64,000 nt of DNA from Treponemataceae bacterium (GCA_963678065.2 CAXXVZ010000004.1:448001-512000); one strand, 5' to 3'. Shown: positions 35,563 to 58,388, numbered from the stretch's first letter. Program-made: numbers and translations. The notes: generated by a model from the letters alone, not told the origin.

Positions 35563-35567
35563 GGCGC

Positions 35568-36692: not shown

Positions 36693-36794
36693 ACAATTCC
36701 TCCGGCTGACTTTGCTGCACGACATCGGCACCAGCCTGACAGGACAGCGCAGGCAGTTCGGAATGCAGCAGTCCCCATGTCTTTATTCTAAGGA

Positions 36795-36820
36795 GAAGCC
36801 CGGGACAGTGCCCGGGCTTC
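36795..36820 (-). terminator. Intercistronic hairpin after the sugar-binding-protein gene
   Basis: GAAGCCCGGG-ACAGTG-CCCGGGCTTC. Confidence 0.6.
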
Positions 36821-36852
36821 CGTGAAAATCACACTCGTTTTACCGGAAAATT

Positions 36853-38157: not shown

Positions 38158-38254
38158 GAAAACCTCCTTGCTGGCTTTTGACGGCCATGTAAAACCCAAT
38201 TCCGATCGGTGCGGTCGGATCGCCCGAGGCGCCCGCCGCCCGATACATCCACAA

Positions 38255-39412: not shown

Positions 39413-39438
39413 GCTCGCCTTTCCTTGTCGTCGTTTTG

Positions 39439-39492
39439 TTGGTTGATTTTATCAACCAATCGTGGTATACCATGAGTTGTACAAACCGTCAA
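39439..39492. promoter_or_regulatory. ROK-type operator and overlapping divergent promoters
   Basis: TTGGTTGAT-TTT-ATCAACCAA (39439-39459); plus-strand TTGATT-17-TATACC and minus-strand TTGACG-17-TATACC sharing TGGTATACCA. Confidence 0.65.
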
Positions 39493-39543
39493 CAATGATT
39501 CGCAATAATTTTTTACGAACCGGTTCTGCCGGCGGGAGGAATA

Positions 39544-42210
39544 ATGGTGAGAATTGATCTCTCGGGGATCTGGTCCCTCACCCGCGTATCCGATGCATCG
39601 GTCCGCCCTATTGTCCTGCCCGGCGACATAATCTCGGCCCTTCTCGCCTCGGGTGAGATTCCCGATCCCTACTCGGGCACGAATGAGCTCGAGTTGCAGT
39701 GGGTCGGGCGCGAGGACTGGCTTCTCGCCCGCGATTTCGAGCTCGACAGGGCGATGGCGGCGATGCCTGAGCTGTTTTTCGAGGCGGAAGTCATCGATAC
39801 GGTCGCAACCGTTTCCGTGAACGGCCGGCAGATCGCGGCCTCGCGAAACATGTTCCGCAGACTCCGCGTCGATCTGTGTGGCGCCGTCGTCCCGGGGAGG
39901 AACAGGATCGAAGTCCGCATAGGCTCGCCCGAAAAGGCCGCGGTCTCAAAGGCGGCCGCCCTGCCCTACCCCGTCCCCTATTCGACCTATCCCGTGAGCT
40001 CCCCGCACCGCAACCTCCTCAGAAAGGAGCAGTGCATGTCGGGCTGGGACTGGGGTCCCTGCCTCATGACGGGCGGCATCTACGATTCGGTCGCCATCGT
40101 CTCCCACACAGGTCCCCGGATCGAGTACGCCCGCCCGCGCTTTTCCCGTTCGGGAACCAGCTGGACAGTGCGCGTCGAGCTGGATCTGTACGCGACACAT
40201 GCCTGTTCGGTCGGGATTTCGGCACTGCTCGCGGATCGGGCGACTGCGACCTTGCGAGAGACTGTGCCCCCTGCGGCCGGTCTCGCCGCCCAAAGAGAGA
40301 GTGCGATCGGGGCGACCGCGACCGAAAACACCGATGTACCGGCCGACACAATCGTGGCGACCGCGACCGAAGTCTTCGAACTGCCTGCCGGTCTCTCGAC
40401 GCGGCACGTCGCGCTCGCGGTCGAGGCACCCCGCCTGTGGTGGCCCGCCGGATACGGAAATCAGGCCCTGTACGGGCTCAGGCTCACTGTGCAGGAGACG
40501 GGCGCGGGCGCCGGGACAGGCTACGCCCTCGACATCGATATCGGCTTCAGGGAACTCGAGATGGTGGCGGAAGAGGACTCGATCGGGCGCTCCATGTATT
40601 TCCGGGTCAACGGCAGGGATATCTTCGCGAAGGGGGCCAACTGGATACCGGCCGATGCCCTGCCTTCGCGCAGGACGAGGGCGCGGCTCGAATCCCTTCT
40701 GGATTCGGCCGTCGCGGCCAACATGAACTGCCTGCGCGTCTGGGGCGGCGGCCGCTACGAGTCCGGGGAATTCTACCGGCTCTGCGACGAGAAGGGCATT
40801 CTCCTCTGGCAGGACTGCATGTTCTCCTGCGCCCTGTACCCAAGCGATGCGGACTTCCTCTCGGAAGTCGACGCGGAGATCCGCCACCAGGTGAGAAGAC
40901 TCCAGCACCATCCCTCGCTCGCACTCTGGTGCGGCAACAACGAAGCCCTGGGCGCCATCGGCTGGTACGAGGAATCGCGCAAGAACCCGGAGCGGTACTA
41001 CATCGACTACGACAGGCTCAACGAGGGTGTGCTCGGCAAAGCCGTCCGCGAACTCGATCCGGACCGGACCTGGTGGCCCTCCTCTCCCTCGGCCGGCCCC
41101 GAGGACTTCAGCGACAACTGGCACGTGGACGGCCGCGGCGACATGCACTACTGGTCGGTCTGGCACGAGGGCAAGCCCTTCTCCGCCTACCTCGACGTGA
41201 AACCACGATTCTGCTCGGAGTTCGGCTTCCAGTCCTTCCCCTCGGCGAGGACGGTCGCCGGCTTTGCGCCCGCCGATCAGCGAAACGTGACGAGCCCCGT
41301 CATGGAGCATCACCAGCGCCATCCGAAGGGCAATTCCCTCATCCTCGACACCATGACGCGCTACTTCAGGATGCCATCGGGCTTCGCGGCGACCCTCTAC
41401 CTCTCCCAGGTTCAGCAGGCCATGGCGATCCGGACCGCCGTGGAATGGTGGCGCTCGCTCCGGCCCGAGTGCATGGGGACACTGTACTGGCAGCTGGGCG
41501 ACGTCTGGCCGGCCGCGAGCTGGTCCAGCCTCGAATACGACGGAAGCTGGAAGCTCCTCCACTATGAAGCCAGACGCTTCTACGCTCCCCTCCACCTTGC
41601 CCTCATCGAGAAGGGCGGTGAAATCCGCGCCGTGGGCATGAACGACACAAAGATTCCGCGGGCGGGCAGGCTCCAGGTGAGGATACTCGGGTTCGACGAC
41701 AGCACGGTCGCTCAGTGGCAGGAGGAGACAGAGATTCCCGCCGATGCCTCGACATGCCTGTGGAGGGCGCGGAAGGAGGCGCTTCCGGGCGATCCAACCC
41801 GCAGCTTCGTCCACGCCGAATGGATACCGGCAGAGTATGACGAGAGGAACACACTCGGGCCGGATTGCCCGGCTTCCGGAGGCGGCAAGGATGGGCAGGA
41901 AAATCCGGAAAGCCTCTCAGCCTGGATGTTCCGGACCGAGCCGAAGCGCTGCAATCTGCCCGACCCGGCCATCTTCCGGGAAGTCAGCCGGCTCTCCGAC
42001 AACTCCTTCAGTATCCGGCTCTCCGCCGAATCCTGCGCCTTCCACGTACAACCTGTTGCCGCGACGATGGGCGGGCATTTTTCGGATGCGGGTTTTGTCC
42101 TCCTGCCCGGAAAGCCCATCCTGATCGGTTTCGAGGCGAACGGGGTTCACACGGCGCAGGAAGTGGAGGAATCCCTGGAACTGTGGCATCTCGCGGCAAG
42201 TTACCGCTGA
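39544..42210 (+). CDS. Beta-mannosidase, glycoside hydrolase family 2
   Basis: RKEQCMSGWDWGP, KGANWIP, RVWGGG, WCGNNE, GDMHYW, SEFGFQS, LYWQLGDVWP. Confidence 0.93.
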   Translation: MVRIDLSGIWSLTRVSDASVRPIVLPGDIISALLASGEIPDPYSGTNELELQWVGREDWLLARDFELDRAMAAMPELFFEAEVIDTVATVSVNGRQIAASRNMFRRLRVDLCGAVVPGRNRIEVRIGSPEKAAVSKAAALPYPVPYSTYPVSSPHRNLLRKEQCMSGWDWGPCLMTGGIYDSVAIVSHTGPRIEYARPRFSRSGTSWTVRVELDLYATHACSVGISALLADRATATLRETVPPAAGLAAQRESAIGATATENTDVPADTIVATATEVFELPAGLSTRHVALAVEAPRLWWPAGYGNQALYGLRLTVQETGAGAGTGYALDIDIGFRELEMVAEEDSIGRSMYFRVNGRDIFAKGANWIPADALPSRRTRARLESLLDSAVAANMNCLRVWGGGRYESGEFYRLCDEKGILLWQDCMFSCALYPSDADFLSEVDAEIRHQVRRLQHHPSLALWCGNNEALGAIGWYEESRKNPERYYIDYDRLNEGVLGKAVRELDPDRTWWPSSPSAGPEDFSDNWHVDGRGDMHYWSVWHEGKPFSAYLDVKPRFCSEFGFQSFPSARTVAGFAPADQRNVTSPVMEHHQRHPKGNSLILDTMTRYFRMPSGFAATLYLSQVQQAMAIRTAVEWWRSLRPECMGTLYWQLGDVWPAASWSSLEYDGSWKLLHYEARRFYAPLHLALIEKGGEIRAVGMNDTKIPRAGRLQVRILGFDDSTVAQWQEETEIPADASTCLWRARKEALPGDPTRSFVHAEWIPAEYDERNTLGPDCPASGGGKDGQENPESLSAWMFRTEPKRCNLPDPAIFREVSRLSDNSFSIRLSAESCAFHVQPVAATMGGHFSDAGFVLLPGKPILIGFEANGVHTAQEVEESLELWHLAASYR

Positions 42211-45167: not shown

Positions 45168-48100
45168 TCATGGCTTCTGCGCCCAGGCCTTCTTGATTAT
45201 GTAATAGCTTTCCTTGTACCGCTCGATATAGGGCGGAGGAAGCTCCCATCCCTTCCAGAAGAAGGGGCTCTCCGGATCGCCGTCGAGCCTGCCGACAACC
45301 TTTTTCCCGACATTGTCCCACCACATGACCGAGGCGACGACGCCTTCGGTCTTCTCCGCCTTGAGCTGGTCCTGGACGGGAATGAAGATATCCCAGCGCA
45401 GGTCGTGGAGGACGTGGAGTGAAGAAGGGTCGGTGAAGTTGATCCTCTGCCAGGGGATGCGGAAGCGGAACTTCGTCCCCTCGACCTTCCAGAGATTGGT
45501 CTGCCGGTCAAAATCCCCGCGGTAGAGCGTGCTCTGGTCGAAGTACTTCGCGGGGATCCGGCGGCCGTCCCTGGTCGTCACAGCAGCGTTCACGAGGGGC
45601 ACGATGCGCTCGAAGACGCCGTCCCAGAGGGGTTTTGAGTCGTAGCGGCCGAGGAACTTGTTGTAGGTCGTGATGACCTTGAGCTCAGCTTTGTCCTGCG
45701 AGGAAATCGTGATGAGGAATTCATTCCCCGACAGGAATGGGACGCCGCCGACGGGATAGCGCATCTGTCCGAGATCCCTGCGGTATGTATCGAGTCCGAT
45801 GAAGAGCGTCTGCTTCCCGAAATCGGGCATGTGGTCCAGGGTCACATCGATGTAGAAATAGGCGGGATCGTGGGCGAGCTCAAGCTTCGTGATCGGACCA
45901 TTGTTGTCGATCGCCGTCCATTCGGGCTTTTCCGGCGGCATGGGAGTCATGGCGAGGAGGCCGTAATTCTGCTCGGGATCGTCCACGTTGTGCCAGTAGA
46001 TGTGGCGCTCGTAGGGTATCATGAATGGCTCGTTGGTCCAGGTCTTCTTGACCCACTCGTCCATCCACTCGAACACGAGGCCTCCTGCGTAGCCCTCGGT
46101 CTTGATCGCCTCGAGCATGCGCAGTATCCCCTCTCCCTGCTCTTTTTCCTGGATCGCCCCGTGGTTGTAGCCGTCCGGATTGAAGTGAGCCACCGATGAA
46201 CCGTTTGCGAGGCCGAACTCGGCCACCAGAGCCGGATACTTGGAGTGCCCGCTCATGAACTCGCGGAGGTATCCGCCGTACATGAATCGTCCGGCGGCAT
46301 CGCGGTAGTATCCGAATTCCTTCTCGTCGTTCATGAAGTCAGGATAATTCGGGTATATATGGTAGGCGCCGAAGATGCCCGCTTCCATTTCCGGGAGGGT
46401 GTCGATGCTGTTGATGTCTATGGAGGCGTTGTCGTTGAAGCGACGGGCTTTTCCCGTTCCGGTATCCCACTCGTAATCGTGGCTCCGGGGGTCGAGAGTG
46501 GGCCAGCTGACCATGCCCACGGGATGCATTTTCCCGTACATGCGCATTTCCTGCTTGACGACCTCATCCATGCTCTCGGCGAGCCACACCTCGGTGGGAG
46601 AGGCTCCCGATCCCGATGTCACATAGCTTCCCTTGTAGCTGACGCCGGGGTTGAGCGAATTGGTGGCGATGACCTCCGGGGACTCGAGTTCCCGCCCCGC
46701 TATCCACCCAAGGAGCCAGCGCGAGACATCGGCGGTGTACACTCCCCAGGCCCTGCCCTTTCGCTCCGTTATGTTCGCGCGACCGTAGACAGCGTCCACC
46801 GCGTACTCGATTTCCTTGAGGAAGTTCTTCTGGTAGCCGGGCGCGAGATAGTTGTTGCCCGGGGGCTGCTCCTCGGGCCAGATGCCCTGAAGGAGATAGA
46901 GCGGTTTGTCGGGATGGAGACGATTGTAGGTGTCGAGGGCCTGGTAGAACTGCGGCGAGGGCAGAGTGTAGATGCGGACCACGTTGGCGTTCATCTCCCC
47001 CATGCCCTCCATCCAGCGCCTGAGAGTCGCCGCGTCGTCCGGAAACTCCGTGTGGTAGGTTCCCGGCATGGCCATTCCGAAGTTCACCCCCCGGACGAAG
47101 AAATCCTTCCACGAGCCATCGTACTGCCTCAGCTGGAAATACTTGCCCTTCGCCTTGACCCGGTACTGGATCGGGTCTTCCTCCTTCACATTGACGGTCT
47201 TCCATTCCTCGCGCCTCTGCTTCGTGGTCTTGAGGATGTAGCGGAACATCGGGACATAGGCTCGCCAGTAGAAATAGTCATTCGAGTCGACCGAGTCGTC
47301 CACGAGGACCTTGTTGAGCCTGTCTATGCCTTGGGCGCCGAAGGGTGTGTTCTTGAATTCGATGTCGGCGAAGTCCCCCGCGAAGTACCAGCCGTTGAAC
47401 TGGGGATTGACCGTGTGGAGAACAGCCGGAAAGCGCGTGGGAAGGCCCAGGCGTTTCAGGTGTGCCTTGCCCGCGTCGGTAAGGTCCCAGTCGTAGTCGG
47501 CGACGACCTCGACGGAGACGTCGGGCAAGGTCCACTCGAACCAGAATTTGAAGGAGACCGGATCGGGAATATTCAGTTTCTTGGCCCACGCGTCGCGGTA
47601 GATGATCTTGAGCATATCGGCGCCGACTTCCTTGCCGGCGGGAAAGACCTCGATGAGGTCGTCGTCGCGGATGAGGACAAAGCCCCGGCCGAAGTATTCC
47701 CAGGGTTTCTTCTTCTGGGCTTCGTAGTTCCTGACGACCCACTCGGGAACCTCGTTGTCCCGCGTCATGTCTTCGTAGAGCCGGCCGATCCAGCCCCGCC
47801 ACCCCATATTGAGGAGGGTTCCGAGGGCCTTGCGGTCGAATTCGTTGGTCGGCGAGGCTGCGGTGTTGAACTCGGCGATGAGGGTGTTGCCCTCGCCTAA
47901 GTGGGTGCGCAGGGAGAGAAGGTCCGAATCGGTGAGACCTCCGTACATCTTCTTGGAGAAGTCTCCCGAGAGCCTGCGCTGCATGTAGTCCTCGGTGTAG
48001 ACGCCGTATGTGTCCGCGAGGTAGATCATGTCCGGACGTGTCGTGGAAACGGGCATCTGCCGTGTTTTCCAGTTCTTGGTCCCGGTCGGGTAGAATCCGT

Positions 48101-48362
48101 AGTAGTCTGTCTTCCGTTCGTAGAGCTTTTTCTGGCCCGGCTTCGTGAGCTTCTCATAGTTGAGGACCCAGAACAGGCCGGTATGCTCGCGGTAGTTCGG
48201 GTAGGGGACGGTCTTGTCGACCACCCAGACATCGAGGTTGGAGAAGGGTTTGAGCTGCCAGATGATGAAGGGGGCGATGAGGAACCCGAGAATCACGACA
48301 GTCACGATGATGGCGAAAAAAATTGCCGCCGTCCATCTCCGCTTGTTTCCACGTTTTTTCAT
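45168..48362 (-). CDS. Membrane-anchored fusion of an uncharacterised N-terminal domain and a clan GH-A-like glycoside hydrolase
   Basis: N-terminal TM; C-terminal part has GVNFG, ANVVRIYT, GRELE, YHIYP, VAEFG, FEWMDEW, a TIM-barrel GH pattern. Confidence 0.7.
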   Translation of the reverse strand: MKKRGNKRRWTAAIFFAIIVTVVILGFLIAPFIIWQLKPFSNLDVWVVDKTVPYPNYREHTGLFWVLNYEKLTKPGQKKLYERKTDYYGFYPTGTKNWKTRQMPVSTTRPDMIYLADTYGVYTEDYMQRRLSGDFSKKMYGGLTDSDLLSLRTHLGEGNTLIAEFNTAASPTNEFDRKALGTLLNMGWRGWIGRLYEDMTRDNEVPEWVVRNYEAQKKKPWEYFGRGFVLIRDDDLIEVFPAGKEVGADMLKIIYRDAWAKKLNIPDPVSFKFWFEWTLPDVSVEVVADYDWDLTDAGKAHLKRLGLPTRFPAVLHTVNPQFNGWYFAGDFADIEFKNTPFGAQGIDRLNKVLVDDSVDSNDYFYWRAYVPMFRYILKTTKQRREEWKTVNVKEEDPIQYRVKAKGKYFQLRQYDGSWKDFFVRGVNFGMAMPGTYHTEFPDDAATLRRWMEGMGEMNANVVRIYTLPSPQFYQALDTYNRLHPDKPLYLLQGIWPEEQPPGNNYLAPGYQKNFLKEIEYAVDAVYGRANITERKGRAWGVYTADVSRWLLGWIAGRELESPEVIATNSLNPGVSYKGSYVTSGSGASPTEVWLAESMDEVVKQEMRMYGKMHPVGMVSWPTLDPRSHDYEWDTGTGKARRFNDNASIDINSIDTLPEMEAGIFGAYHIYPNYPDFMNDEKEFGYYRDAAGRFMYGGYLREFMSGHSKYPALVAEFGLANGSSVAHFNPDGYNHGAIQEKEQGEGILRMLEAIKTEGYAGGLVFEWMDEWVKKTWTNEPFMIPYERHIYWHNVDDPEQNYGLLAMTPMPPEKPEWTAIDNNGPITKLELAHDPAYFYIDVTLDHMPDFGKQTLFIGLDTYRRDLGQMRYPVGGVPFLSGNEFLITISSQDKAELKVITTYNKFLGRYDSKPLWDGVFERIVPLVNAAVTTRDGRRIPAKYFDQSTLYRGDFDRQTNLWKVEGTKFRFRIPWQRINFTDPSSLHVLHDLRWDIFIPVQDQLKAEKTEGVVASVMWWDNVGKKVVGRLDGDPESPFFWKGWELPPPYIERYKESYYIIKKAWAQKP

Positions 48363-48375
48363 ATGAGAAGACTCC

Positions 48376-51300
48376 TCATGCCGGTGGCTTGGCTCCGCCG
48401 AACCCCTTCCGATCCGCCTTTCCCCAGCCGGTCGGCTTTTTCATGGCATTGAAATAGCCGAGTACCCGCCAGAAACTGAAGAATTCCCTTGGGCCGAAGC
48501 TCTCGGCGAAGGCCGTCACCAGCAATCGCAGGTTATCCCTGTAGCTGAAATATATAATATTGCGCTCCGCAATGAGAACCGATGCCATGGAGATGAAGAT
48601 GCCGAACATGATCGTCGCGAGGAAGAGGAGAATGGCCATTTTCGTGGAGAGGAGACCGAAGAGCGCGGCGAGGAACACCATGACATAACCCTGAATCTCG
48701 AAGAGCGGCCCGACCATCTCGAAGAGGAAATAGTAGGGCATGGCGACCATCCCCATCCGGCCGTAGCGCGGATTGAAGAGGGTCCTGCGGTGGAAGAAGA
48801 GAATGTCGATGAGTCCCCGGTGCCAGCGGTCGCGCTGCCGCTTGAGGCTCTTGATGTCCTCGGGGACCTCTGTCCAGCAGTTCGCGTTGTAGGCGTATCC
48901 GATGCGGTACTTTATCTTGTTCTCGCGCATGTAGCGACTTATGCGCACGACGAGTTCCATGTCCTCGCCCACGGTGTCCTTGCGGTAGACCTCCGAGCTC
49001 GTGAGGTAGCCGCCGATGCTGACGACGCGGTCCTTGCGGAAGAGTCCGAAGGCGCCCGAGATGATGAGGAGGCTGTTGAGCTGCGCCCAGCCGAGGCGGC
49101 CGCACATGAAGGCGCGCATGTACTCGATGGTCTGGAGCCGGGCGAGTCCGTTCGCGGGGATTCCGATCTCCGTGAGCATGCCCCGGTCGACCACGCAGCC
49201 GTTGACGGGGAAGACATTGCCGCCCATGGCCGGCGTCTCGATGCCGTCGTCCAGGGTCAGGGAGGCTATCTTCAGCATGGCGTCCGAGTCGAGGAGGGAG
49301 TCCGCGTCGATTCCGCAGATATACTCGTTTTCGGCTATGTTGATGCCCGCGTTGATGGAATCGGCCTTGCCTCCGTTCTCCTTGTCCACGACGATGAGCT
49401 TGGGCATGAGAGGATTCACGTAGATTCCGCGGATCGGGTGGCACTTGAGTTTGGATGTGTACTGGAAGTCGACTCGCTGGAGATTGAAGTACTTGATGAG
49501 AGTCGCGAGCGTGGCATCTCTCGAGCCGTCGTTGACGACGACGAGTTCGTAGTCGGGATACTTCAGGTTGAGGAGGCTGTTCGCGCTCTCTATTATGGAC
49601 TTCTCCTCGTTGAAGGCCGGGGCGATGATGGACACGGAGGGCAGCATGCGCGGCTTGAAGAGCATGCTCCGCTTCTTGAGGTTCCACAGGCGTTCGAGGT
49701 TGCCGACCTTCATCCTCGAGAGGAGGAGGAGGAAGGAGTAGACGACGTTGACGATGATGGAGTAGTAGGCGAAATCGTAGTTGAACTCGACGATGAAGAT
49801 CTTGAGCTGGTGAAGGAATGGAACGACGAAGAGGTAGTCGAAGTGCCGCATGATGTACAGGAAGGGGAAGAAGGCTATCGCGAAGGCGAGGATGGCGTAC
49901 ATGGTGAGGACCATCTTCCTGTCCTGGACCTCCTCGCGTTTCTTCACCGGCAAAAGGACGCGGGCGAGTCCGCACTTGTCGAGGACGCGGTCGGGCAGAT
50001 AGATGCCGAATTCCCGCTCGAGCTCTTCGTTTCCGGGGACGACCTCGCGGATGATGGCGACGAGCGCATCCTCGAGGAGCATGTTCTCGTTGCGCTTCAG
50101 GAATTCGACGATTTCGCTCACCCGCCCGAGGCGGATGATCTCGCGGATGACGGTCTCCGATTGGGCTTTCTCCCTGCCGTCCAGCCTGTTGATGAAATAC
50201 TCGACGCGCCCCGCGAGAACTTCCGCTATGCGCTCGCGGCGGTACCCCGTCGATTCCACGAATTGTCCGACGAGGACCGGCGTGAGGCGCGGATGTCGCT
50301 CGAGAAGCCTCGCGAGGCTCCTCTTGGCGACGTCGGATGTATCCGGGGAATCGAGGAAGCCGACTATCTTGACGATATTGGCGGCGTCCATGCCCCTGCC
50401 CAGGGCGCTGATGGCCACGGCCTGGAGTTCCGGATCGCCGCAGTGCAGGTAGCGATCGTCGTCGAGCACCTTGAAATAGTGTTTTTCCAGGGTGCCCGCC
50501 GCCCTGATCATGAGCTTGCGGTAGTTGTCGCCCGGGTTGATGCTGACAGGAAGGATGGTGAAGTGCCGGCAGATGTCGGCCGCGTCCATGACGCCATTGT
50601 AGGGGCAGTCGCGCCTGTTGTTCTCGAGTACGGATCGGCCGTGAATGCAGTGGGCGCAGCTGCGGCGCGGGCAGCCCTTCACGGTCGAATCGAGGCGCGC
50701 CGCCTCGCGCTCCCTGTCGTCGATGAGCTGGAGGATCCAGTCCCGCAGGTCGCCCGAAACGGAGACACCGGCGAAATCGACCATGAGCTCGCGCACCTCG
50801 ACCTCGTCGCGCATGAAGAGCTTTGGCAGGTATTCCTTCAGGTCCTCCCCGAAGCCGGAGATGAGCATATTGACCTTGTCCCTGTACCAGCGGTGTGAGC
50901 CGAGGAGGCTCGACACCAAGGCGGGAATGGAACGCTTGTCGCCGATATCGGAGAGCGCGTTGGCTATGAACACCTTTACCGGGTAGACCTTTTCACGGGC
51001 GAGAGCGCGTTCCAGCTCGCGCCGGGCCGTCGGAGTGGCGATCACGCCGAGGGCCGAGGCGGCCTCCATCCTGCGGATGCGATCGCGCGAATTGAGGTGC
51101 CGCTCGAAGACCGGCTCGATATGCTTCGCGCGCGCGAGGTCGAGAATGGCGGTCCGCATTTCGGGAGGCAGGTCTATGGAGTCGTGGAGCTTGGCGTAGT
51201 TGGTGAACAGCCGCCTGACCTGCGCGTTGTTCCTGATCCGGCCGCGCTCGAAAAGCCTGACGAGGGCGGCGAGTTCCCTTGACCGTTTCTCCTGCTGGAG

Positions 51301-51402
51301 GATCCATTTTGCCTTGTTCGTGAGGGTCAGCACGACGAGAATGAGGTCGACCCAGATGAACAGGAGCAGGACGGCGAAGAGGAACTCTACATCGATGCTC
51401 AT
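48376..51402 (-). CDS. HEAT-repeat and processive GT2 glycosyltransferase fusion (PgaC/IcaA-like synthase)
   Basis: N-terminal TM and HEAT repeats (RIRRMEAASALG, VFIANALSDIG); PAFNEE, NDGS, NGGKAD, DADS, GED, QRDRW; C-terminal TMs. Confidence 0.9.
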   Translation of the reverse strand: MSIDVEFLFAVLLLFIWVDLILVVLTLTNKAKWILQQEKRSRELAALVRLFERGRIRNNAQVRRLFTNYAKLHDSIDLPPEMRTAILDLARAKHIEPVFERHLNSRDRIRRMEAASALGVIATPTARRELERALAREKVYPVKVFIANALSDIGDKRSIPALVSSLLGSHRWYRDKVNMLISGFGEDLKEYLPKLFMRDEVEVRELMVDFAGVSVSGDLRDWILQLIDDREREAARLDSTVKGCPRRSCAHCIHGRSVLENNRRDCPYNGVMDAADICRHFTILPVSINPGDNYRKLMIRAAGTLEKHYFKVLDDDRYLHCGDPELQAVAISALGRGMDAANIVKIVGFLDSPDTSDVAKRSLARLLERHPRLTPVLVGQFVESTGYRRERIAEVLAGRVEYFINRLDGREKAQSETVIREIIRLGRVSEIVEFLKRNENMLLEDALVAIIREVVPGNEELEREFGIYLPDRVLDKCGLARVLLPVKKREEVQDRKMVLTMYAILAFAIAFFPFLYIMRHFDYLFVVPFLHQLKIFIVEFNYDFAYYSIIVNVVYSFLLLLSRMKVGNLERLWNLKKRSMLFKPRMLPSVSIIAPAFNEEKSIIESANSLLNLKYPDYELVVVNDGSRDATLATLIKYFNLQRVDFQYTSKLKCHPIRGIYVNPLMPKLIVVDKENGGKADSINAGINIAENEYICGIDADSLLDSDAMLKIASLTLDDGIETPAMGGNVFPVNGCVVDRGMLTEIGIPANGLARLQTIEYMRAFMCGRLGWAQLNSLLIISGAFGLFRKDRVVSIGGYLTSSEVYRKDTVGEDMELVVRISRYMRENKIKYRIGYAYNANCWTEVPEDIKSLKRQRDRWHRGLIDILFFHRRTLFNPRYGRMGMVAMPYYFLFEMVGPLFEIQGYVMVFLAALFGLLSTKMAILLFLATIMFGIFISMASVLIAERNIIYFSYRDNLRLLVTAFAESFGPREFFSFWRVLGYFNAMKKPTGWGKADRKGFGGAKPPA

Positions 51403-53444
51403 TTGACCGCCCTTTTCTTGAGCAGGTTTCCGACGACACCAAGCACCTCCGACATCATGTAGGGTTTCTTGATGTAGTAGTCGATGCCGAGGCCGCAGGC
51501 CCTGATGACCGTGTGCTCGTCCTTCAGGTGCGAGAGTATGATAAACGGAATCTCCTTGGTCGCGGAACTCGTCGCCATGTTCTCTTTCAGGACGAAGGCA
51601 TCCATCTTGGGGACCATGATCTCGGCGATCACGAGGTCGGGGCCCTCCTTCTCGACGAGCCGCAGGGCTTCGGCCCCATCCGAGGCGGCGATGACGCGGT
51701 AATCCGAGTTTTCAAGGAAGGACCTGAGGACGTCGACGTTGACCCTGTCGTCGTCGACGATGAGGATGTGTCCGCGGGACTGGACTTCTACCTCGATCTC
51801 CGAAGTCGTGACGACCAGGTTCCCTCCCTTTTTCTTGGCCGACCGGAGCCGCCTGATGCCGATGTCGTAGAGCGCGGGGCCCGCTTCGGAAGGCGCGTTG
51901 ATCCCTGCCCGTATCTCGGAGAGGGCGATGACGCCCGCGGAGACCGTGACCCGCTCGATGAAGGAGCCCGAGCCTTCGACCAGGGTCCTGATGTTTTCAG
52001 CGAGCTGCGCTGCGGAGCGTACGCCGAGCCCCGGCAGCCACAGACCGAAGGTCGCCCCGTGAAGACGGAAAGCGGGATACTGCCGCTCCCGAACATTGTT
52101 GAGGATCTTCGCGATCCCGCGGAGGATCTCCTCGACTTCGCGGGGGCCGTACTGGTATTCGATCCTCGCCATACCTTCGTCGACGCCGATGAGAACGAGG
52201 GTGTTGTCCTCGACCGGCTCGTCCCTTGAGGCCTGGGCTATCTTGAGCGAGGCCTCCTCGTCGATGTAGCTCCTGAAGAAGGATTCATTGTAGAGACCCG
52301 TCACGGGGCAGGTCATCATGTGCTGCTGGGTCCTCTCGATCGTCTCGTTCAGCTCGTTCGTGAGCTTGGTCAGACGGCCCACTTCGTCGGTCAGGATGAC
52401 GGTCTCCTTCTGGGTCTCGAGGAGGGAGGAGCGGTAGATCTCGGGCTGGCGGATCGAGAACTCGGTGCATATTTTGCGCATGAGGGGGTCGAGGACGCCG
52501 AGGGCGGCGATGCCTTTCTCGAGGTAGATGGCCTCGAAGACCCTCTGCCAGAGGCGCTCGCCCTGGTGGCCATAGTCGAGGACGGTATTCGTGACGGGAT
52601 CCAGCTTCATGGAGAGGCGGTAGGCGACGGCCTTGAACGCATCGATGCCGAAGAGAATGGTGAATCGCCTGAGTATCTCGTCGACTATGACCGTGTAGCC
52701 GCCGATCTGGGCGAGATCCCGCCGTATGGAGTGCATGAGGACGCCGCACTCGAGATCGCGCAGGGCCACGATGTAGTCGGATATGTTGCCCCGGATGATC
52801 GAGCCGTGCTGGGGCGCGATGATCGTGATGTTCATCCTGAGGAAAAGTTCCATGACCGGCCTGAGGATTTCGTTGGAGGGCATGTAGTGCTCGTGGAAAG
52901 CCTTCATCCTCTCGATGTAGTCGGGGCCGGCGTAGAGGCTCCAGCCCGAACCGAAGGCGCCGAAGAGGTCGCTCGAGACGAGGATGCCGCTCGTTTTGTC
53001 GTAGGAGACGATGGAACCCGCAAAGTGGAGGTACGGTGTATGGATGAAACGGATGCTGCGCCCGGTGGCGAGGCAAAGGCTGTAGCCATGCTCGTCGACG
53101 AGATAGTAGGGCGACCTGATTCCGTAGAAGCGGACGAGGCCCCAGGTGCGCCAGTGTGTGACGATCGTGAAATTCATGCCCCTTTTCTCCATGAGGGGCA
53201 CCGCGGAGGCGAGGTCGGGGTCCTGGTGGGAGAGCACGACGTATTTCACTTTGTGGAGCGGGATGAGGCTCTCCACGTTGGCGATGACCCGTTCGTAATC
53301 CAGGACGGAGCCTGGATCGAAGAGGACGCCCTCGTCGCCCTCGATGAGGAGATAGGGATTGCATTGCAGGTTGTCGGAGGCTTCGGCGGTGCCGACCCAG
53401 AAGAACCCGTTGCCCAGAAACTCAATTTTTCGGCTGTCCCGCAT
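51399..53444 (-). CDS. ODP (oxygen-binding di-iron, MBL fold), degenerate GGDEF and atypical receiver fusion
   Basis: DPGS, SHQDPD, PYLHFAG, SSDLFG, FHEHYMP, PQHGS (ODP); VTGLYN..FF and RLHGATF (GGDEF fold); LIVDDD, LVIAEIMVP, KKP (REC). Confidence 0.85.
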   Translation of the reverse strand: MRDSRKIEFLGNGFFWVGTAEASDNLQCNPYLLIEGDEGVLFDPGSVLDYERVIANVESLIPLHKVKYVVLSHQDPDLASAVPLMEKRGMNFTIVTHWRTWGLVRFYGIRSPYYLVDEHGYSLCLATGRSIRFIHTPYLHFAGSIVSYDKTSGILVSSDLFGAFGSGWSLYAGPDYIERMKAFHEHYMPSNEILRPVMELFLRMNITIIAPQHGSIIRGNISDYIVALRDLECGVLMHSIRRDLAQIGGYTVIVDEILRRFTILFGIDAFKAVAYRLSMKLDPVTNTVLDYGHQGERLWQRVFEAIYLEKGIAALGVLDPLMRKICTEFSIRQPEIYRSSLLETQKETVILTDEVGRLTKLTNELNETIERTQQHMMTCPVTGLYNESFFRSYIDEEASLKIAQASRDEPVEDNTLVLIGVDEGMARIEYQYGPREVEEILRGIAKILNNVRERQYPAFRLHGATFGLWLPGLGVRSAAQLAENIRTLVEGSGSFIERVTVSAGVIALSEIRAGINAPSEAGPALYDIGIRRLRSAKKKGGNLVVTTSEIEVEVQSRGHILIVDDDRVNVDVLRSFLENSDYRVIAASDGAEALRLVEKEGPDLVIAEIMVPKMDAFVLKENMATSSATKEIPFIILSHLKDEHTVIRACGLGIDYYIKKPYMMSEVLGVVGNLLKKRAVK

Positions 53445-53511: not shown

Positions 53512-54477
53512 CTATGTGGTCGGGGAGTTGACCGGGTTCAGGGCTTTATCTCCTTTCAGGACGCGGACAACCTCGTGGGCGGCCCGCCGTTTCAGCTCGA
53601 CGATGGATTTCTCGGAATACCAGGCCGCGTGAGGCGTCAGAATGACGGAATCGAGGCCGAGGAGGGGATTGTCCGGGCGAAGAGGCTCGGTCTCGAGCAC
53701 GTCGAGTCCCGCTCCCGCGATCCTTCCGGCCCGGAGGGCGCCGACGAGGGCCGACTCCTCCACGAGAGGGCCGCGCGCGGTATTCACGAGGAAAGTTCCG
53801 GGCCTCATCATGGCGAACTGCCTCTCGCCGAGGAGGCCGCGGCTACGCGCGTCGAGGAGGCAGTGCAGGCTGATAACCTCAGCCTGGGCGCAGAGCGTCT
53901 CGAGCTCGACCTTCTCGACGCCCAGCCGTCCCATGGCCTGTGCGTCGACATTCGGATCGGTGCCGATGAGCCTGAATCCGATGGGAGCCAGTTTGCGCGC
54001 GAGGCTCGAGCCGATCCTTCCGAGGCCGATGATGCCCGCCACCGTGTCCCGGGAATTGCGGATCGGCGCCGCGCGGGGATAATTGAAGTCGTCATCGCCT
54101 TTCGCCCTGTCGTAGCGGACGATTCCGCGCGTGAGGGCGAGGATGAGCGCCAGGGCGTGGTCGGACACTTCGTCGACGCAGTAATCCGGCACATTGCAGC
54201 AGAGGATGCCCTTTCGGGCCGCGTATTCCGTGTCGAGATTGTCGTAGCCGACGCCGTAGCGGACAATGATCCGGCAGCGCCTCATCGCGTCGATCACGCG
54301 GGGTCCGACCTTGTTGTGCTGGACAATGAGGGCGTCGGCATCGGCGACGAGGCCGGATATGTCATCCTCGGTCGGTACCCTGTGCGCGAGGACCTCGAAG
54401 CCCGCGGCCTCGAGGATTTCCCTCTCCTGGTCCACTCGGGGATGCTCGTAATGGCAGATCACGACTTTGGCATTCAT
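53512..54477 (-). CDS. D-isomer-specific 2-hydroxyacid dehydrogenase (CtBP/SerA-like)
   Basis: RYGVGYDN, NVPDYC, GIIGLGRIG, NTARG, DVLETEP, TPHAAWYS; start MNAKVV at 54477 with GGGAG RBS. Confidence 0.93.
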   Translation of the reverse strand: MNAKVVICHYEHPRVDQEREILEAAGFEVLAHRVPTEDDISGLVADADALIVQHNKVGPRVIDAMRRCRIIVRYGVGYDNLDTEYAARKGILCCNVPDYCVDEVSDHALALILALTRGIVRYDRAKGDDDFNYPRAAPIRNSRDTVAGIIGLGRIGSSLARKLAPIGFRLIGTDPNVDAQAMGRLGVEKVELETLCAQAEVISLHCLLDARSRGLLGERQFAMMRPGTFLVNTARGPLVEESALVGALRAGRIAGAGLDVLETEPLRPDNPLLGLDSVILTPHAAWYSEKSIVELKRRAAHEVVRVLKGDKALNPVNSPTT

Positions 54478-54576
54478 GGTTTTACTCCCGTTTTTTGTTC
54501 CCGCCCCCGTTCGCGCCCGCGGTGCCGTCACGCGCTGTGTCTGGCATGCATGCGCCGCGAAGGGCTCGCGATAGAA

Positions 54577-54605
54577 GTTGTAGCATCGACGACTTGTGTG
54601 TTCAA
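54577..54605 (-). promoter_or_regulatory. Candidate promoter of the 2-hydroxyacid dehydrogenase
   Basis: Minus-strand TTGAAC, 17 bp, TACAAC with extended TG. Confidence 0.45.
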
Positions 54606-54636
54606 AAACAAAAGGCGCACCGTGCCGCGCGCCTTT
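54604..54636 (-). terminator. Intrinsic terminator after the larA homolog
   Basis: Minus strand AAAGGCGCGC-GGCACG-GTGCGCCTTT followed by TGTTTTT. Confidence 0.75.
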
Positions 54637-54728
54637 CTGTCCAGTGGGGATTTGAACATGCACATTGTAGATCTATCATATTCACGAGCTTATTTCTACG
54701 GCATCCTTCATCAACGCTTCAGCGGTCA

Positions 54729-56132
54729 TCAGGCATTTTCATGTACCGGTATGCCATAGGGGCCGTCGGGAAGCCACGCGACGCGGGGTGCGGGAAGGCC
54801 GGCGCTCTGTCTGCGCTGGATCTCCAGTTCCACGGCCCGCTCGATGACCCGCGCCGCATCCTCGAGCGTCAGGTCCTTGCGCGGCTTTCCGTCCAGGAAG
54901 GCAATGCCGTCGAGGCCGGGAATGAGTTTCCAGTCTCCGTCGGAAAGCTGGGGGGCGAAGTAGACGAATCGCGCGAAAGGCAGCCTGCAAAAGAGCTTGC
55001 ACCACATCTGCACCTGCCACTGCTCCAGCACGAAAGGCCAGTCCGGACTCATGAGAAGCCGCTCGAAGGCCCCGACGCCCACCTGCTTCAGGAGGCCCAG
55101 CACCGTCCTGTAAGACGCCCCTCCGACAGGATCGGCGTCATGGTTGTCGGCGACCAGGATGCACAGGGCGCCTCCGGCCAGCATCGGCGCGATCGCGGTG
55201 CCGGTTTTCGCCGCCTGGTAGTGGTTGCGGCCCACGAACCCCGCGTGCGATACGACGATGTCGTATTCGCCGCTGAAGGGAATGCCCACGTAGGAGCGCA
55301 CCTTGGCTACCGCCGCCTCGTGGGCCGCCTCGAGCGCGCCTGCGAAGACGCCCGTGAGCCTGAACGAGTGATCCAGCGTCACGTTGACGATGAAATCGAC
55401 GCCGGCCATCCTGGCCGCGAACAGCGACTCTTCGTGGCAGGGATTTCCGGCCAGGTAAAGATCGCGCGTGCCGGGGTGGGCCATCATGGCCGCGCCATGG
55501 AAGACATAGGTGCTTTTTTTACCCACGATGCCGGGACAGACACTCTTGCGGCCGCCCGAGGCGCCGGCCATGAAGTGGCTCTCCACCAGTCCCGTCAGAA
55601 TCCGGAAATCCGCCTCCATGTACGCGCGGTTGACGAATACTTCGTTGCCCCGCTCCGTGCGCCCCAGGCGCACGAGATTTTCCTCATCTTCGCAGTCGTG
55701 GTTCAGCACCCGTATTCCGTTTTCGAAGACTTCCGGGTCGAGCATCGCGCGGAGTTCAGCCTCCGACATCGCGCGGTGCGTGCCTGTGCCCACCAGAACG
55801 GTGATGTCGCCGCGCGCGAATCCAGAATCCTCCAAGGCCCGTATGATGGGCATGAGGATGCCGGATTCGCCCCTGTACGGCACCGGGCGGGTGTTGTCGG
55901 AGACGACGACGACAGCGGTCGGCCGTTTTCCCGCGGCCGCCTGCCGCGCGGCGGTTTCCGCGGCCAGCGCGGCAAGAGGTCTGGATGCGATCGGCGCTTC
56001 GAGGGCGGCCGCAATCGCCGGGCCGGGATTGTCGAGCGCCCGGGGCGCCTTCATGGAGAGTACGTCTACTGGGCAGGAAAGCCGCGCGGTGACGGTGCGG
56101 CCGCCGGAAAAGGGAATCCGCAGTTCCGTCAC
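54729..56132 (-). CDS. larA: Nickel-pincer-dependent lactate racemase family 2-hydroxyacid racemase/epimerase (LarA homolog)
   Basis: SDNTRPVP, GTGTHR, ESHFMAGASGGRKSVCPG, FHG, NHYQAAK, PDGPY. Confidence 0.88.
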   Translation of the reverse strand: MTELRIPFSGGRTVTARLSCPVDVLSMKAPRALDNPGPAIAAALEAPIASRPLAALAAETAARQAAAGKRPTAVVVVSDNTRPVPYRGESGILMPIIRALEDSGFARGDITVLVGTGTHRAMSEAELRAMLDPEVFENGIRVLNHDCEDEENLVRLGRTERGNEVFVNRAYMEADFRILTGLVESHFMAGASGGRKSVCPGIVGKKSTYVFHGAAMMAHPGTRDLYLAGNPCHEESLFAARMAGVDFIVNVTLDHSFRLTGVFAGALEAAHEAAVAKVRSYVGIPFSGEYDIVVSHAGFVGRNHYQAAKTGTAIAPMLAGGALCILVADNHDADPVGGASYRTVLGLLKQVGVGAFERLLMSPDWPFVLEQWQVQMWCKLFCRLPFARFVYFAPQLSDGDWKLIPGLDGIAFLDGKPRKDLTLEDAARVIERAVELEIQRRQSAGLPAPRVAWLPDGPYGIPVHENA

Positions 56133-57412
56133 GACAGGTTCCGGATTCCGGAGAAATCGCCGGAGGCGGCCGCCCTGAGGATGGGCTCCATGTATTCGTC
56201 GACCAGCGCGGCGGTCAGGGGCACCGGCATGTTTTTCAGCTTCATTTCGAGCTGTGGATCCTTGGCGGCGGCGAGCGCCTTCGCGATGTGCGCCTGCGTG
56301 AATCCGGGGAAGTCGGTGAGCTTCGTGGGCGCGCCGATGGCCTTCGCGAAGGCCACCATGCCGCGGGCTACGGCCTCTCCCAGCGCCCTTCCGGCCAGGG
56401 CTTCCCAGCCCGCGGCCATGTAGCCGTACTGGCTGAGAATCTCGCCCATCACGCGGGCCTGCCGCTCGATCCTGGGCGCGAAGAACACCAGGTAATAAGG
56501 ATTCATGACGCCGCAGGCCGTACCGTGCCCCGCGACATCGACGAGGGAAAAACTCGTCAGGTGCGCGCCCGAGGTTCCGCCCACCATGATCGCGTAGCCG
56601 CCCAGGTCGGTGGCCATGCCGATCGCTTCCCTGGCTTCCATGTCCGCGGGATCGGCGATGACACGGATGGCGTACTTCACCGCCAGCTCGACCGAGGCCC
56701 GGGCAATCCGCTCGGCCTTGTCCAAGGCGCTGCCCGAGACAGAGCAGAACACTTCGAAGGAGTGGGCGATGGCATCCAGGGCTCCGTCGATGGTGACGGC
56801 GCGAGGCATGGAGACCGTCACATCGTAGTCAAAGAGCGCCCGTGAGGGAACGATCGCCTCGTCGACGATGAGCTTCTTCTGTCCTGCGACCGGATCGGTG
56901 ATATTGGAATATTTGGTCAGATGCGCCCCCGAGCTGGCGCTGGTCTGCACGGCGATCATAGGAATCAACGCGGCGCCGGTCTCCCCGAGCGCCGCGCCCA
57001 CGAGTCCCGTGCCGAAATAGCTGTCAATTTCGCACGATTTCCGGCCCAGAGTCGCGAGCACATTCGCCGCCTTCACCGCGTCGATAGTCGAGCCGCCGCC
57101 GACCGCGACAATACAGTCCGGCTTGTGGTGCAGGAGGTATCCTTGCAGCCGGTACACATCCGCGCGCGGGGCGTTGGGACCCGCGTCGGGAGCGATCCTG
57201 CCGCCAGCGAGCGACACTCCGGCGGCCGAGAGCGAGGCGACTACCGCATCGGCCAGAGGTTTCATGTAGGTGGTATTGCAGACCACAAGCGCAGTCTTTC
57301 CGTACGCGGCGGCGATCGGCCCGATGCGCCCGAGGACGCCGCGGCCGAAGATATAGCGGTCGCCCTTCCACTCGGTGAGCAGGGTGCGGGATTCGTCAAA
57401 CAGTCTGTCCAT
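56129..57412 (-). CDS. Iron-containing alcohol dehydrogenase family protein
   Basis: GPNAP, GGGSTIDAVK, QTSASSGAH, DAIAHSFE, AHLTS, HGTAC. Confidence 0.9.
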   Translation of the reverse strand: MDRLFDESRTLLTEWKGDRYIFGRGVLGRIGPIAAAYGKTALVVCNTTYMKPLADAVVASLSAAGVSLAGGRIAPDAGPNAPRADVYRLQGYLLHHKPDCIVAVGGGSTIDAVKAANVLATLGRKSCEIDSYFGTGLVGAALGETGAALIPMIAVQTSASSGAHLTKYSNITDPVAGQKKLIVDEAIVPSRALFDYDVTVSMPRAVTIDGALDAIAHSFEVFCSVSGSALDKAERIARASVELAVKYAIRVIADPADMEAREAIGMATDLGGYAIMVGGTSGAHLTSFSLVDVAGHGTACGVMNPYYLVFFAPRIERQARVMGEILSQYGYMAAGWEALAGRALGEAVARGMVAFAKAIGAPTKLTDFPGFTQAHIAKALAAAKDPQLEMKLKNMPVPLTAALVDEYMEPILRAAASGDFSGIRNLS

Positions 57413-57433
57413 CGTCGTTTCCTCGTTTATTTT

Positions 57434-58387
57434 TTATTGTCGCGCAAGCGCACGGCCTGCGGCGGATATAGCTTTCGCACTGATCCCGTACTTGTCAAGC
57501 AGGGCCTTGTAGGGCCCCGACTCGGTGAAGGTGTCGTGCAAACCGATGGCCGCCGCCTTCCACGCGCGGCTTGTTCCCGCGAAGCCGGATGCGGAGAGCC
57601 CTGTGAGGGCTTCGGCGCAGGCCGCGGCGAGGCCACCGGTGATGCTGCCTTCCTCCGCGGTGACGAGCCGTCCTGTCCTGGCCACCGAAGCGCCCAGAGT
57701 CGCCGCATCCAGCGGCTTCACGCTCGCCATGTCGAGCACCTCGGCGCCGATTCCCTCGGATGCGAGAATCTCCGCCGCCTCGAGCGCCTGGGCCACGCAG
57801 ATGCCGCAGGCGGCTATCGTCAGGTCATCGCCTGAACGGAAAATCCTGGCCTTGCCGAACTCGACCGGCTCCGGAGAAGGCACCGCGGGCAGCTCATTGC
57901 GGTTCAGACGGATGTACACCGGCCCGTCTGCCACGAGGGCGAGTTCCAGAGCCCGTTCGGCCGCGGCGTTGTCCGCAGGCACCAGCACGCGCATGGACGG
58001 CAGCGAGCGCATGATCGCCAGGTCGGCGATCGAGTGGTGGCTCGCGCCGTCGAAGGAATCGGAGAGGCCACCGTACGCGCCGGCGAGCACAACCGGAATC
58101 TCATTGTAACAAAGCACGTTGCGGATCTGGTCCGTCGCCTTCAGCGCGAGAAAGATCGCGAAGCTGTTCGCCACGGGCCTGTAGCCGCCCAGGGCCAATC
58201 CCGCCGCGACGTCGACCATGTTGGCCTCCGCCACGCCCACATTGAAAAACCGTTCGGGGAAGGCCTGCGCGAAATACGAAGATTTCGTGCTCGAGGAGAC
58301 ATCCGCGTCGAGGACGACGATCTTCGGATCGGCGTAGCCCATCGCCGCAAGTTTCTTCCCGAAAGCGTCGCGCATCGTCATGCCCAT
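57434..58387 (-). CDS. Transketolase, C-terminal subunit
   Basis: MRDAFG, DADVSSST, GVAEANM, DGASH, GPVYIRL, VKPLD. Confidence 0.92.
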   Translation of the reverse strand: MGMTMRDAFGKKLAAMGYADPKIVVLDADVSSSTKSSYFAQAFPERFFNVGVAEANMVDVAAGLALGGYRPVANSFAIFLALKATDQIRNVLCYNEIPVVLAGAYGGLSDSFDGASHHSIADLAIMRSLPSMRVLVPADNAAAERALELALVADGPVYIRLNRNELPAVPSPEPVEFGKARIFRSGDDLTIAACGICVAQALEAAEILASEGIGAEVLDMASVKPLDAATLGASVARTGRLVTAEEGSITGGLAAACAEALTGLSASGFAGTSRAWKAAAIGLHDTFTESGPYKALLDKYGISAKAISAAGRALARQ

Positions 58388-58388
58388 A

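Follow-up and report, generated by a model that had tools for sequence, protein, structure and literature searches.

A conserved three-gene set in a Treponemataceae bacterium combines an ODP-type sensor protein with a HEAT-fused family 2 glycosyltransferase and a glycosidase-like protein

Introduction

Synthase-dependent exopolysaccharide machines, such as those for cellulose, poly-N-acetylglucosamine (PNAG), Pel and alginate, are central to biofilm biology. To our knowledge, the known post-translational switch of such machines is the binding of cyclic di-GMP (c-di-GMP). Here we describe three adjacent genes of a Treponemataceae bacterium, located at positions 45,168 to 53,444 of a DNA stretch of 64,000 nt (GCA_963678065.2, CAXXVZ010000004.1:448001-512000; hereafter the window). 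They encode an ODP–GGDEF–receiver (REC) sensor protein (ODP, oxygen-binding di-iron protein), a family 2 glycosyltransferase (GT2) fused to a HEAT-repeat arm, and a membrane-anchored protein that resembles glycoside hydrolases (GHs) at the fold level and is referred to as gene 3. The finding is real and well conserved, and two of the components, the HEAT-repeat adaptor port and the GH-A-like family, are unnamed. With a probability of roughly 0.55, we read the trio as a conserved polysaccharide machine in which the ODP sensor docks via its receiver on the HEAT arm and gates synthesis by O2/Fe(II), with gene 3 trimming or otherwise handling a beta-linked polymer.

Among the described systems, PgaABCD/IcaADBC resembles the trio in that one operon encodes both a membrane-bound processive GT2 with the motifs D, DxD, ED and QxxRW and a protein that processes the polymer outside the cytoplasm. 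However, the trio lacks PgaD/IcaD, the deacetylase and the PgaA-type porin, its HEAT arm and sensor have no counterpart in these systems, and its synthase scores far below the PgaC_IcaA cut-off. BcsA-BcsB provides a parallel for a GT2 gated post-translationally by a cytoplasmic regulatory module, as proposed here, and for a membrane-anchored periplasmic partner and a glycosidase. In contrast to BcsA-BcsB, there is no PilZ domain in the trio, the partner is anchored at its N terminus and has a GH-A barrel instead of the BcsB fold, and the regulator is a separate protein.

Dead-GGDEF proteins that are encoded together with a polysaccharide synthase and needed for it include PelD, YdaK (with YdaLMN) of B. 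subtilis and PssE of Listeria (PMC5422440, PMC13274460, PMC4125290). These proteins bind c-di-GMP via an RxxD motif that is absent here, and they come without an ODP, receiver or HEAT partner. An O2-binding metal centre N-terminal to a GGDEF domain, with biofilm formation as the output, is known from the globin-coupled and hemerythrin-GGDEF diguanylate cyclases (PMC7033309, PMC9388753). Those enzymes make c-di-GMP, whereas the sensor described here has no catalytic motif and appears hard-wired to one synthase. Treponema denticola and Thermotoga maritima possess ODP chemotaxis sensors that belong to the same domain family and have identical HQDPD and QH motifs, but here the domain is fused to a dead GGDEF and a pseudo-receiver beside a polysaccharide synthase, with no chemoreceptor output. 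Finally, NfrB of E. coli senses c-di-GMP via its C-terminal MshEN domain and is not known to involve HEAT, REC or ODP. The NfrB-DgcJ pair is similar in that a GT2 is placed under one dedicated signalling protein instead of the global pool (PMC8669469), and it resembles in particular the version of our system with an intact cyclase that is found in Bacilli (see below).

Judged by its motifs and model scores, the trio belongs neither to PgaC/IcaA nor to BcsA, and its sensor falls outside the I-site receptors, the active cyclases and the phosphorylatable receivers. By analogy, the logic of the system may resemble that of synthase-dependent systems (Pga/Ica, Bcs, Pel, Yda/Pss) and of O2-sensing cyclases. 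A preliminary description, made from the window's sequence, had considered the architecture uncharacterised; consistent with this, a full-text literature search returned no publication on the gene set or on direct sensor-to-synthase control. According to PMC7319448, ODPs have been described as sensors of O2 and iron, and ODPs joined to signal-transduction domains were noted in the original ODP study (Muok et al. 2019), so that study may already list this type of ODP fusion. Two other candidates were set aside: the mixed-linkage glucan synthase RiGT2 of Romboutsia (PMC10374906) is BcsA-like, carries PilZ and has no such operon, and therefore is not of this family, and the CheWS paper (PMC10653840) is not on ODP fusions.

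The gene set and its conservation

All three genes, and the domains within them, are encoded on the minus strand of the window. The sensor gene (P0001, 51399..53444) is an open reading frame (ORF) of 681 aa without any hydrophobic or transmembrane (TM) segment and consists of an ODP domain, a helical linker, a degenerate GGDEF domain and a Glu-substituted receiver. Its stop codon overlaps the ATG of the synthase gene (P0002, 48376..51402; ORF of 1008 aa, assigned by Pfam and NCBIfam) by four bases (ATGA, 51399-51402). A spacer of 13 bases with an internal GGAG separates the synthase stop from the ATG of gene 3 (P0003, 45168..48362; ORF of 1064 aa), which has an N-terminal TM anchor, with the remainder predicted to lie outside the cytoplasmic membrane. 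The preliminary description had reported three co-directional genes with this overlap and with a ribosome-binding site in the 13-bp gap, which we confirmed, and the Pfam families it expected (ODP, GGDEF, Response_reg, HEAT_2 and GT2) were all matched. The three can be regarded as real genes because 520 relatives of gene 3 (protein search) and 864 clusters of sensor relatives among 8000 scored (E ≤ 1e-20) were found. Within the organism's own family, the sensor was found in 16 of 21 genera (33 of 61 genomes). All of the 120 sensor relatives listed contain ODP and REC, and 118 also contain GGDEF; such proteins are annotated merely as "response regulator" or "diguanylate cyclase-like".

A pattern scan with one genome per species yielded 596 relatives of gene 3, of which the best 80 loci were analysed (designated by L numbers). 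A GT2 gene on the same strand was detected in 57 of the 80. Within these 57 loci, HEAT repeats were fused to the GT2 in 24 cases and encoded by a separate gene of ~350-410 aa just upstream of the GT2 in 25; the other eight were missed by the criteria, among them L014, which does carry a HEAT_2 protein, and L007, which is truncated. A REC gene stood directly before HEAT in 39 of the 49 HEAT loci (21 of the ODP type and 18 others) and directly after the GT2 in four. The ODP-type sensors invariably preceded a fused HEAT-GT2 (21/21); the joint conservation of the trio, whose absence would have refuted the preliminary description, is seen in 21 of the 80 loci. The trio belongs to a wider, unnamed system in which a regulator with a REC domain is combined with a HEAT protein, encoded separately or as a fusion, as well as with a GT2 and a GH-like protein; ODP is one of several inputs to this system.

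Among the other regulators, the smallest are lone receivers of 119-132 aa (L037, L050, L052, L053 and L081) and the largest are Hpt-REC-GGDEF-REC proteins. The existence of lone receivers suggests that the REC is the part which communicates with HEAT. The acceptor residue is Asp in 21 of the 26 non-ODP receivers, Glu in four and Asn in one. Judging from these residues, the receiver is probably phosphorylatable in most lineages; in the ODP lineage, Asp appears to have been replaced by Glu, and the cyclase motif is gone.

Six Bacilli loci (L058, L060, L070, L073, L078 and L079, from Peribacillus, Neobacillus and Bacillus spp.) encode an intact GGEEF with RxxD. Here the order is Hpt-REC-GGEEF-REC, separate HEAT, GT2, full-length GH-like protein, single receiver and a HAMP-GAF-HisKA-HATPase-REC hybrid kinase. 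By its domain content, this version is a complete phosphorelay with a likely active cyclase dedicated to the synthase. In four loci of Brevibacillus and Paenibacillus (L065, L067, L074 and L075), we observed the order GH-like, HEAT, GT2, a protein of 263-275 aa ending in a Glu receiver, and then UDP-glucose dehydrogenase. The Glu in these receivers looks like an independent loss of Asp, and the neighbouring dehydrogenase is a hint that the polymer of this lineage contains uronic acid. Carriers of the system include non-pathogenic, culturable Acetobacterium, Sphaerochaeta, Desulfosporosinus, Carboxydothermus, Peribacillus and Brevibacillus, which makes it testable at the bench.

The synthase and its HEAT-repeat arm

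In the synthase, HEAT_2 was matched at residues 99-173 (33.1 bits, cut-off 27.7), whilst residues 591-928 are covered by GT2 families. Hydrophobic segments are located at residues 1-31, ~496-521, ~543-567 and 896-946. The processive-type GT2 region (48619..49632, residues 591-928), with TM segments on either side, carries the motifs NDGS (624), DAD (699-701), GED (812-814) and QRDRW (856-860). All of these are invariant in 20 aligned relatives, in agreement with the earlier view of a HEAT-fused GT2 with intact motifs. The best NCBIfam model was PgaC/IcaA (TIGR03937), with 118.3 bits against a cut-off of 422.3 and partial coverage; BcsA (TIGR03030) reached 24.9 bits against a cut-off of 699.1. 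Searches of the GT2 half against PDB sequences returned just generic N-terminal GT2 matches (best 6e-10), which do not point to a particular sugar. Furthermore, no PilZ (at E ≤ 0.1), deacetylase, porin or other known c-di-GMP-binding family was matched in the three proteins by Pfam and NCBIfam, as had been noted for the first three before. Our guess is that the product of this diderm is periplasmic or cell-associated.

The HEAT-repeat arm (49903..51300, residues ~35-500) is predicted to be cytoplasmic, together with the catalytic domain, because basic residues follow the first TM helix. It is homologous to the separate membrane-anchored HEAT proteins of other lineages: a profile of the 25 separate proteins aligned to the fused arm in hhalign with 98.7% probability (E 2.1e-16) over 301 columns, including the N-terminal TM helix. 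The 25-sequence profile was required for this result, as a single Bacilli HEAT protein gave a probability of 8%.

The arm also contains a Cys-rich insertion (50569-50673, residues 244-278) with C244, C249, C252, C266 and C278 in a CxxC...C...C arrangement. Of 20 fused HEAT-GT2 proteins, 12 have this insertion, the one described here included, whereas the Acidaminobacter/Peptostreptococcaceae and Sphaerochaeta groups lack it. Its cysteines might serve to bind zinc or an iron-sulfur cluster, in which case the insertion would represent a second possible redox-sensitive site.

The glycosidase-like third protein

Gene 3 matched no Pfam or NCBIfam family and no PDB sequence. An AlphaFold2 model computed from a 32-sequence alignment had a predicted local distance difference test (pLDDT) score of 89.4 and a predicted template-modelling (pTM) score of 0.87. 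Behind the TM anchor (residues 8-41), the model comprises three parts. The first is a GATase1-like/ThuA-like domain (47178..48251, residues 38-395; pLDDT 90.5 when folded alone), the second a (beta/alpha)8 barrel of the clan GH-A type (45963..47165, residues ~400-800) and the third a set of C-terminal beta-rich domains (45171..45962, residues ~801-1064), which are beta-sandwiches according to the secondary structure of the model.

In VIA-align, the GATase1-like domain was most similar to the non-catalytic domain B of GH42 (5xb7, Z 14.7, root-mean-square deviation 3.1, 195 aligned), followed by Agd3 (14.3), with Z ~12 for ThuA-like proteins, IFT52 and OST48 (12.0) and 9.4 for PelA; 56 chains reached Z ≥ 8. 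There is no conserved Cys in this domain among the invariant or ≥90% conserved columns of the 32 sequences, hence amidotransferase activity is not expected. A profile of the domain found nothing better than E 0.4 among PDB sequences. In L036, L037, L041 and L050 the domain is encoded by a separate gene. A lead connecting it to YdaL as a DUF2194 relative was dropped: it was weak (0.81), and PF09960 is absent from the genome and gave no match in B. subtilis among the controls.

Foldseek placed the barrel closest to GH157 (9fz9, probability 1.00, E 1.5e-15), followed by GH2 glucuronidases, GH158 and GH5 mannanases, with matches down to E 1e-8. Identity to these GH relatives is ~10-13% in structural alignments (GH157 ~11%). 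R463, Y667 and E715 (in AEFG) are invariant in the gene 3 alignment, E558 (in GRELE) and W766 are at least 90% conserved, and W770 is conserved as well. By our reading of the strand order in the model, E558 and E715 follow strands 4 and 7. In clan GH-A, the acid/base residue is located after strand 4 and the nucleophile after strand 7. The identification of gene 3 as a GH is supported at the fold level only, with a putative catalytic assignment based on model and conservation. Of the earlier designation as a membrane-anchored GH, the anchor and, for the fold, the GH-A barrel were borne out, but there was no match to a Pfam GH family. Gene 3 shares the (beta/alpha)8 barrel with GH157, GH158, GH2, GH5 and GH42, and the GATase1-like domain plus beta-sandwich with GH42. 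It differs from these families in the permuted domain order (GATase1-like first), in being membrane-anchored and in having RE instead of NE before the putative acid/base, and at the sequence level it is not a member of GH157, GH158, GH2 or GH42. Its relatives form a large, unnamed, glycosidase-like family and a candidate for a new CAZy family.

From the modelled fold, we infer that gene 3 is an active retaining glycosidase acting on the nascent chain. A competing explanation is that it serves as an obligatory co-synthase or translocation partner, comparable to BcsB for BcsA, or as a transglycosylase attaching the polymer to the envelope, instead of trimming it. Retaining GH-A enzymes can transglycosylate. 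Two apparent GT2-GH fusions, L032:6539-11410 (1623 aa, from a Marispirochaeta metagenome-assembled genome, MAG) and L053:3909-7625 (1238 aa, from a Candidatus Anoxymicrobiaceae MAG), in which a single reading frame covers the synthase and the GH-A half of gene 3, fit such a role; so do the near-universal pairing with a GT2, seen in 57 of the 80 loci, where many of the others are short contigs, and the non-catalytic GATase1-like domain which precedes the barrel and is shared with Agd3, PelA and OST48. However, the catalytic-type residues are conserved, and three loci, from Carboxydothermus islandicus (L016), Caloramator fervidus (L018) and Bacillus sp. RO1 (L059), contain a full-length gene 3 with no related GT2, HEAT or REC gene in the 10-kb flanks. 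In addition, a stand-alone paralogue without a nearby synthase retains these residues. Lone copies with conserved residues fit an enzyme able to act alone, and we regard the co-synthase or transglycosylase role as somewhat unlikely. Independent of this, the apparent GT2-GH fusions speak for a joint complex in which gene 3 sits on the synthase.

The paralogue just mentioned corresponds to the GH-A half of gene 3. It is encoded in the same genome on the minus strand (809 aa, G000:C4:98565-100994, equivalent to L086:8565-10994) between the genes for aspartate carbamoyltransferase and a tRNA methyltransferase, is 33% identical over residues 395-1060 and has kept R463, E558 and E715.

The sensor protein

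Motif counts in this section refer to 22 ODP+REC proteins from the related loci, or to 23 when the window's own sensor is included. The N-terminal ODP domain (52803..53369, residues 26-214) matched PF19583 with 199.4 bits (E 6.9e-59; cut-off 27.2). Its closest solved relatives in a PDB sequence search are the ODPs 6qrq (E 3.1e-31) and 6qnm (6e-25), compared with ~1e-9 for flavodiiron proteins. By sequence, the domain is a genuine ODP and not a flavodiiron protein, as the preliminary description had maintained. It contains the motifs SHQDPD (72-77), YLH (138-140), SSD (157-159) and PQHG (211-214). The residues that we take to be the iron ligands (HQDPD, H, D and QH, at positions 72-77, 140, 159 and 212-213) are identical to those of 6qrq and 6qnm in the HMMER alignment, so that by analogy the domain may bind iron and O2 like the solved ODPs. 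The ligand residues were assigned following the motifs described in PMC7785958. Of the 22 relatives, 18 have retained all four motifs, across Spirochaetota and Bacillota. Two of the others, L006:5134-6918 (Spirochaetaceae UBA6089) and L010:4942-6849 (a MAG labelled Leptospira biflexa), show HQQEPS/HGEEPG, YLY, GAL and SYG/TYG in place of the motifs; their GGDEF is dead and their receiver has Glu as in the other sensors, and the trio is complete at both loci. A linker of ~130 residues, conserved with matches in 16 loci, connects the ODP to the GGDEF domain.

The degenerate GGDEF domain (51918..52307, residues 380-509) matched PF00990 with 37.4 bits and has HGATF (462-466) in place of GG[DE]EF. 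The genome encodes 18 GGDEF matches, among which that of the sensor is the second weakest (40.7 bits), and 16 stronger ones reach 77-172 bits. Not one of the 23 ODP-type sensors has GG[DE]EF. The receiver domain (51441..51767, residues 560-668; PF00072, 72.7 bits, cut-off 30.2) carries Glu608 (in IAEIMVP) at the phospho-acceptor position, and Glu is found at this site in 20 of the 22 relatives (21 of 23 with the window's own). Thus, the loss of cyclase and phosphorylation motifs that had been noted before is a property of the family.

The main rival to our reading casts the sensor as a c-di-GMP receptor comparable to PelD, YdaK or PssE: c-di-GMP from other cyclases would be captured by the dead GGDEF or the pseudo-receiver, the sensor would then activate the synthase, and the ODP would merely modulate the response. 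Binding of c-di-GMP by pseudo-receivers is known. At least 16 strong GGDEF matches in the genome could belong to such cyclases, and the Bacilli regulators of the same system, with their intact GGEEF and RxxD, make it plausible that c-di-GMP is sensed somewhere in the machine. Degenerate-GGDEF receptors that activate synthases are established; YdaK requires its RxxD motif (PMC5422440). The I-site is absent here: five residues before the motif, the sensor has ERQY (453-456), and in the alignment of residues 448-480 the relatives show no R..D at this place either. Neither PilZ nor another known c-di-GMP-binding family was matched in any of the three proteins. We consider a c-di-GMP receptor role unlikely.

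Proposed mechanism and its significance

The preferred reading is that of a direct switch. The ODP domain, with iron and O2 bound, would sense the O2/Fe(II) state, and this state would be passed through the conserved linker and the dead GGDEF to the receiver without a second messenger. The Glu-substituted receiver could then dock on the predicted cytoplasmic HEAT arm, and this contact would activate or release the GT2 synthase. Outside the membrane, the anchored gene 3 product may accept the chain and then cut, shorten or transfer it. Such a chain-processing role is performed elsewhere by BcsZ, the C-terminal domain of PgaB, and PelA. The polymer is presumably beta-linked. A contact between REC and HEAT is suggested by gene order, translational coupling and the split and fused forms: the adjacency of REC and HEAT is independent of the other cargo of the regulators, and together with the coupling in this locus it suggests that the receiver acts on the HEAT adaptor, which in turn would control the synthase. 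The stronger version of this proposal is a switch for O2/iron that is free of second messengers, in which the ODP drives the docking of a pseudo-receiver on a membrane-anchored HEAT adaptor and thereby opens the GT2, with REC-to-HEAT-to-synthase as a new class of two-component output; we advance it tentatively.

Several observations weigh against the proposed switch. Gene adjacency and translational coupling are compatible with mere co-expression too, and six of the 49 HEAT loci have no adjacent REC gene, two of these being at contig edges. The promoter and terminator scan gave no more calls than chance would (5 vs 2.5 expected and 7 vs 8.9 expected). None of the calls sets the trio apart from its neighbours, the dehydrogenase and M29 peptidase genes, which leaves the ends of the transcript or operon undefined. 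Relatives with an intact GGEEF plus RxxD and a phosphorylatable receiver, next to at least 16 ordinary GGDEF proteins in the genome, indicate that the family can work through c-di-GMP or phosphorylation. The preliminary interpretation of an O2/Fe input acting without c-di-GMP or phosphorylation was accordingly supported in part: the dead motifs of this sensor agree with it, but ODP is one of several inputs, and the Bacilli regulator combines an intact cyclase with a phosphorylatable receiver. Concerning gene 3, the motif RE deviates from the NE that is usual in clan GH-A. Finally, most metal-ligand motifs are gone in three of the 22 ODP-type relatives (L006, L010 and L051), and in L032 the first His is replaced by Asn; retention of the protein in all four implies that sensing is dispensable for its role. 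The explanation built on these four, that the sensor is mainly a fixed structural subunit with vestigial sensing, a receiver locked in one state by Glu (which in this position often has the effect of phosphorylation) and control by transcription, is quite improbable, as the intact motifs in the other 18 relatives from two phyla argue for selection on metal binding and the ODP-GGDEF linker is conserved.

If the proposed reading is true, the HEAT-repeat adaptor is the regulatory port of the synthase, and receiver domains, phosphorylatable or not, are a direct input to it. A response regulator would in this case target the adaptor arm of an enzyme instead of DNA, and a REC-HEAT-synthase class would exist in hundreds of species. 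One lineage would have exchanged phosphorylation for a di-iron O2/Fe(II) sensor, by which anaerobes could plausibly start or halt the production of a protective glycan once they meet oxygen.

Neighbouring genes and accessory functions

The host genome has a size of 5.27 Mb in 5 contigs, and the best protein matches of the trio are named Rectinemataceae and Treponemataceae, from which we take the host to be a free-living spirochaete. Upstream, a 2-hydroxyacid dehydrogenase gene on the same strand is separated from the sensor gene by 67 bases, in which no terminator-like site was found. It is part of a stretch (53512-58519, same strand) that also encodes a LarA-like protein of the lactate racemase family, an iron alcohol dehydrogenase and a transketolase-like protein. 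Downstream, a gene for an M29 peptidase follows after a gap of 56 bases. We rejected this peptidase as a part of the system, since its downstream copy recurs only in spirochaete loci (with one copy elsewhere in L014) and thus reflects lineage synteny. Further downstream lies a sugar-utilisation block (34702-42210) with genes for a GH2 beta-mannosidase-like protein (39544-42210, plus strand), a ROK-family regulator (38255-39412, minus strand), and an ABC solute-binding protein and permease (36853-38370 and 34702-36720, both on the minus strand).

Accessory genes beside the core of the system, such as those at L023:4031-4783, L052:8516-9994 and L022:17993-19690, are lineage-specific. GH16 proteins, sometimes with a Cu_amine_oxidN1 domain, are encoded in L023 and L052, with a weak match in L022. 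A CE4 polysaccharide deacetylase occurs in L022, among the Sphaerochaeta-like loci, and a UDP-glucose dehydrogenase in L064 and L074. In L054, L056 and L068 (WOR-3 and unclassified MAGs), genes for TPR proteins are located between the GT2 and the GH-like gene.

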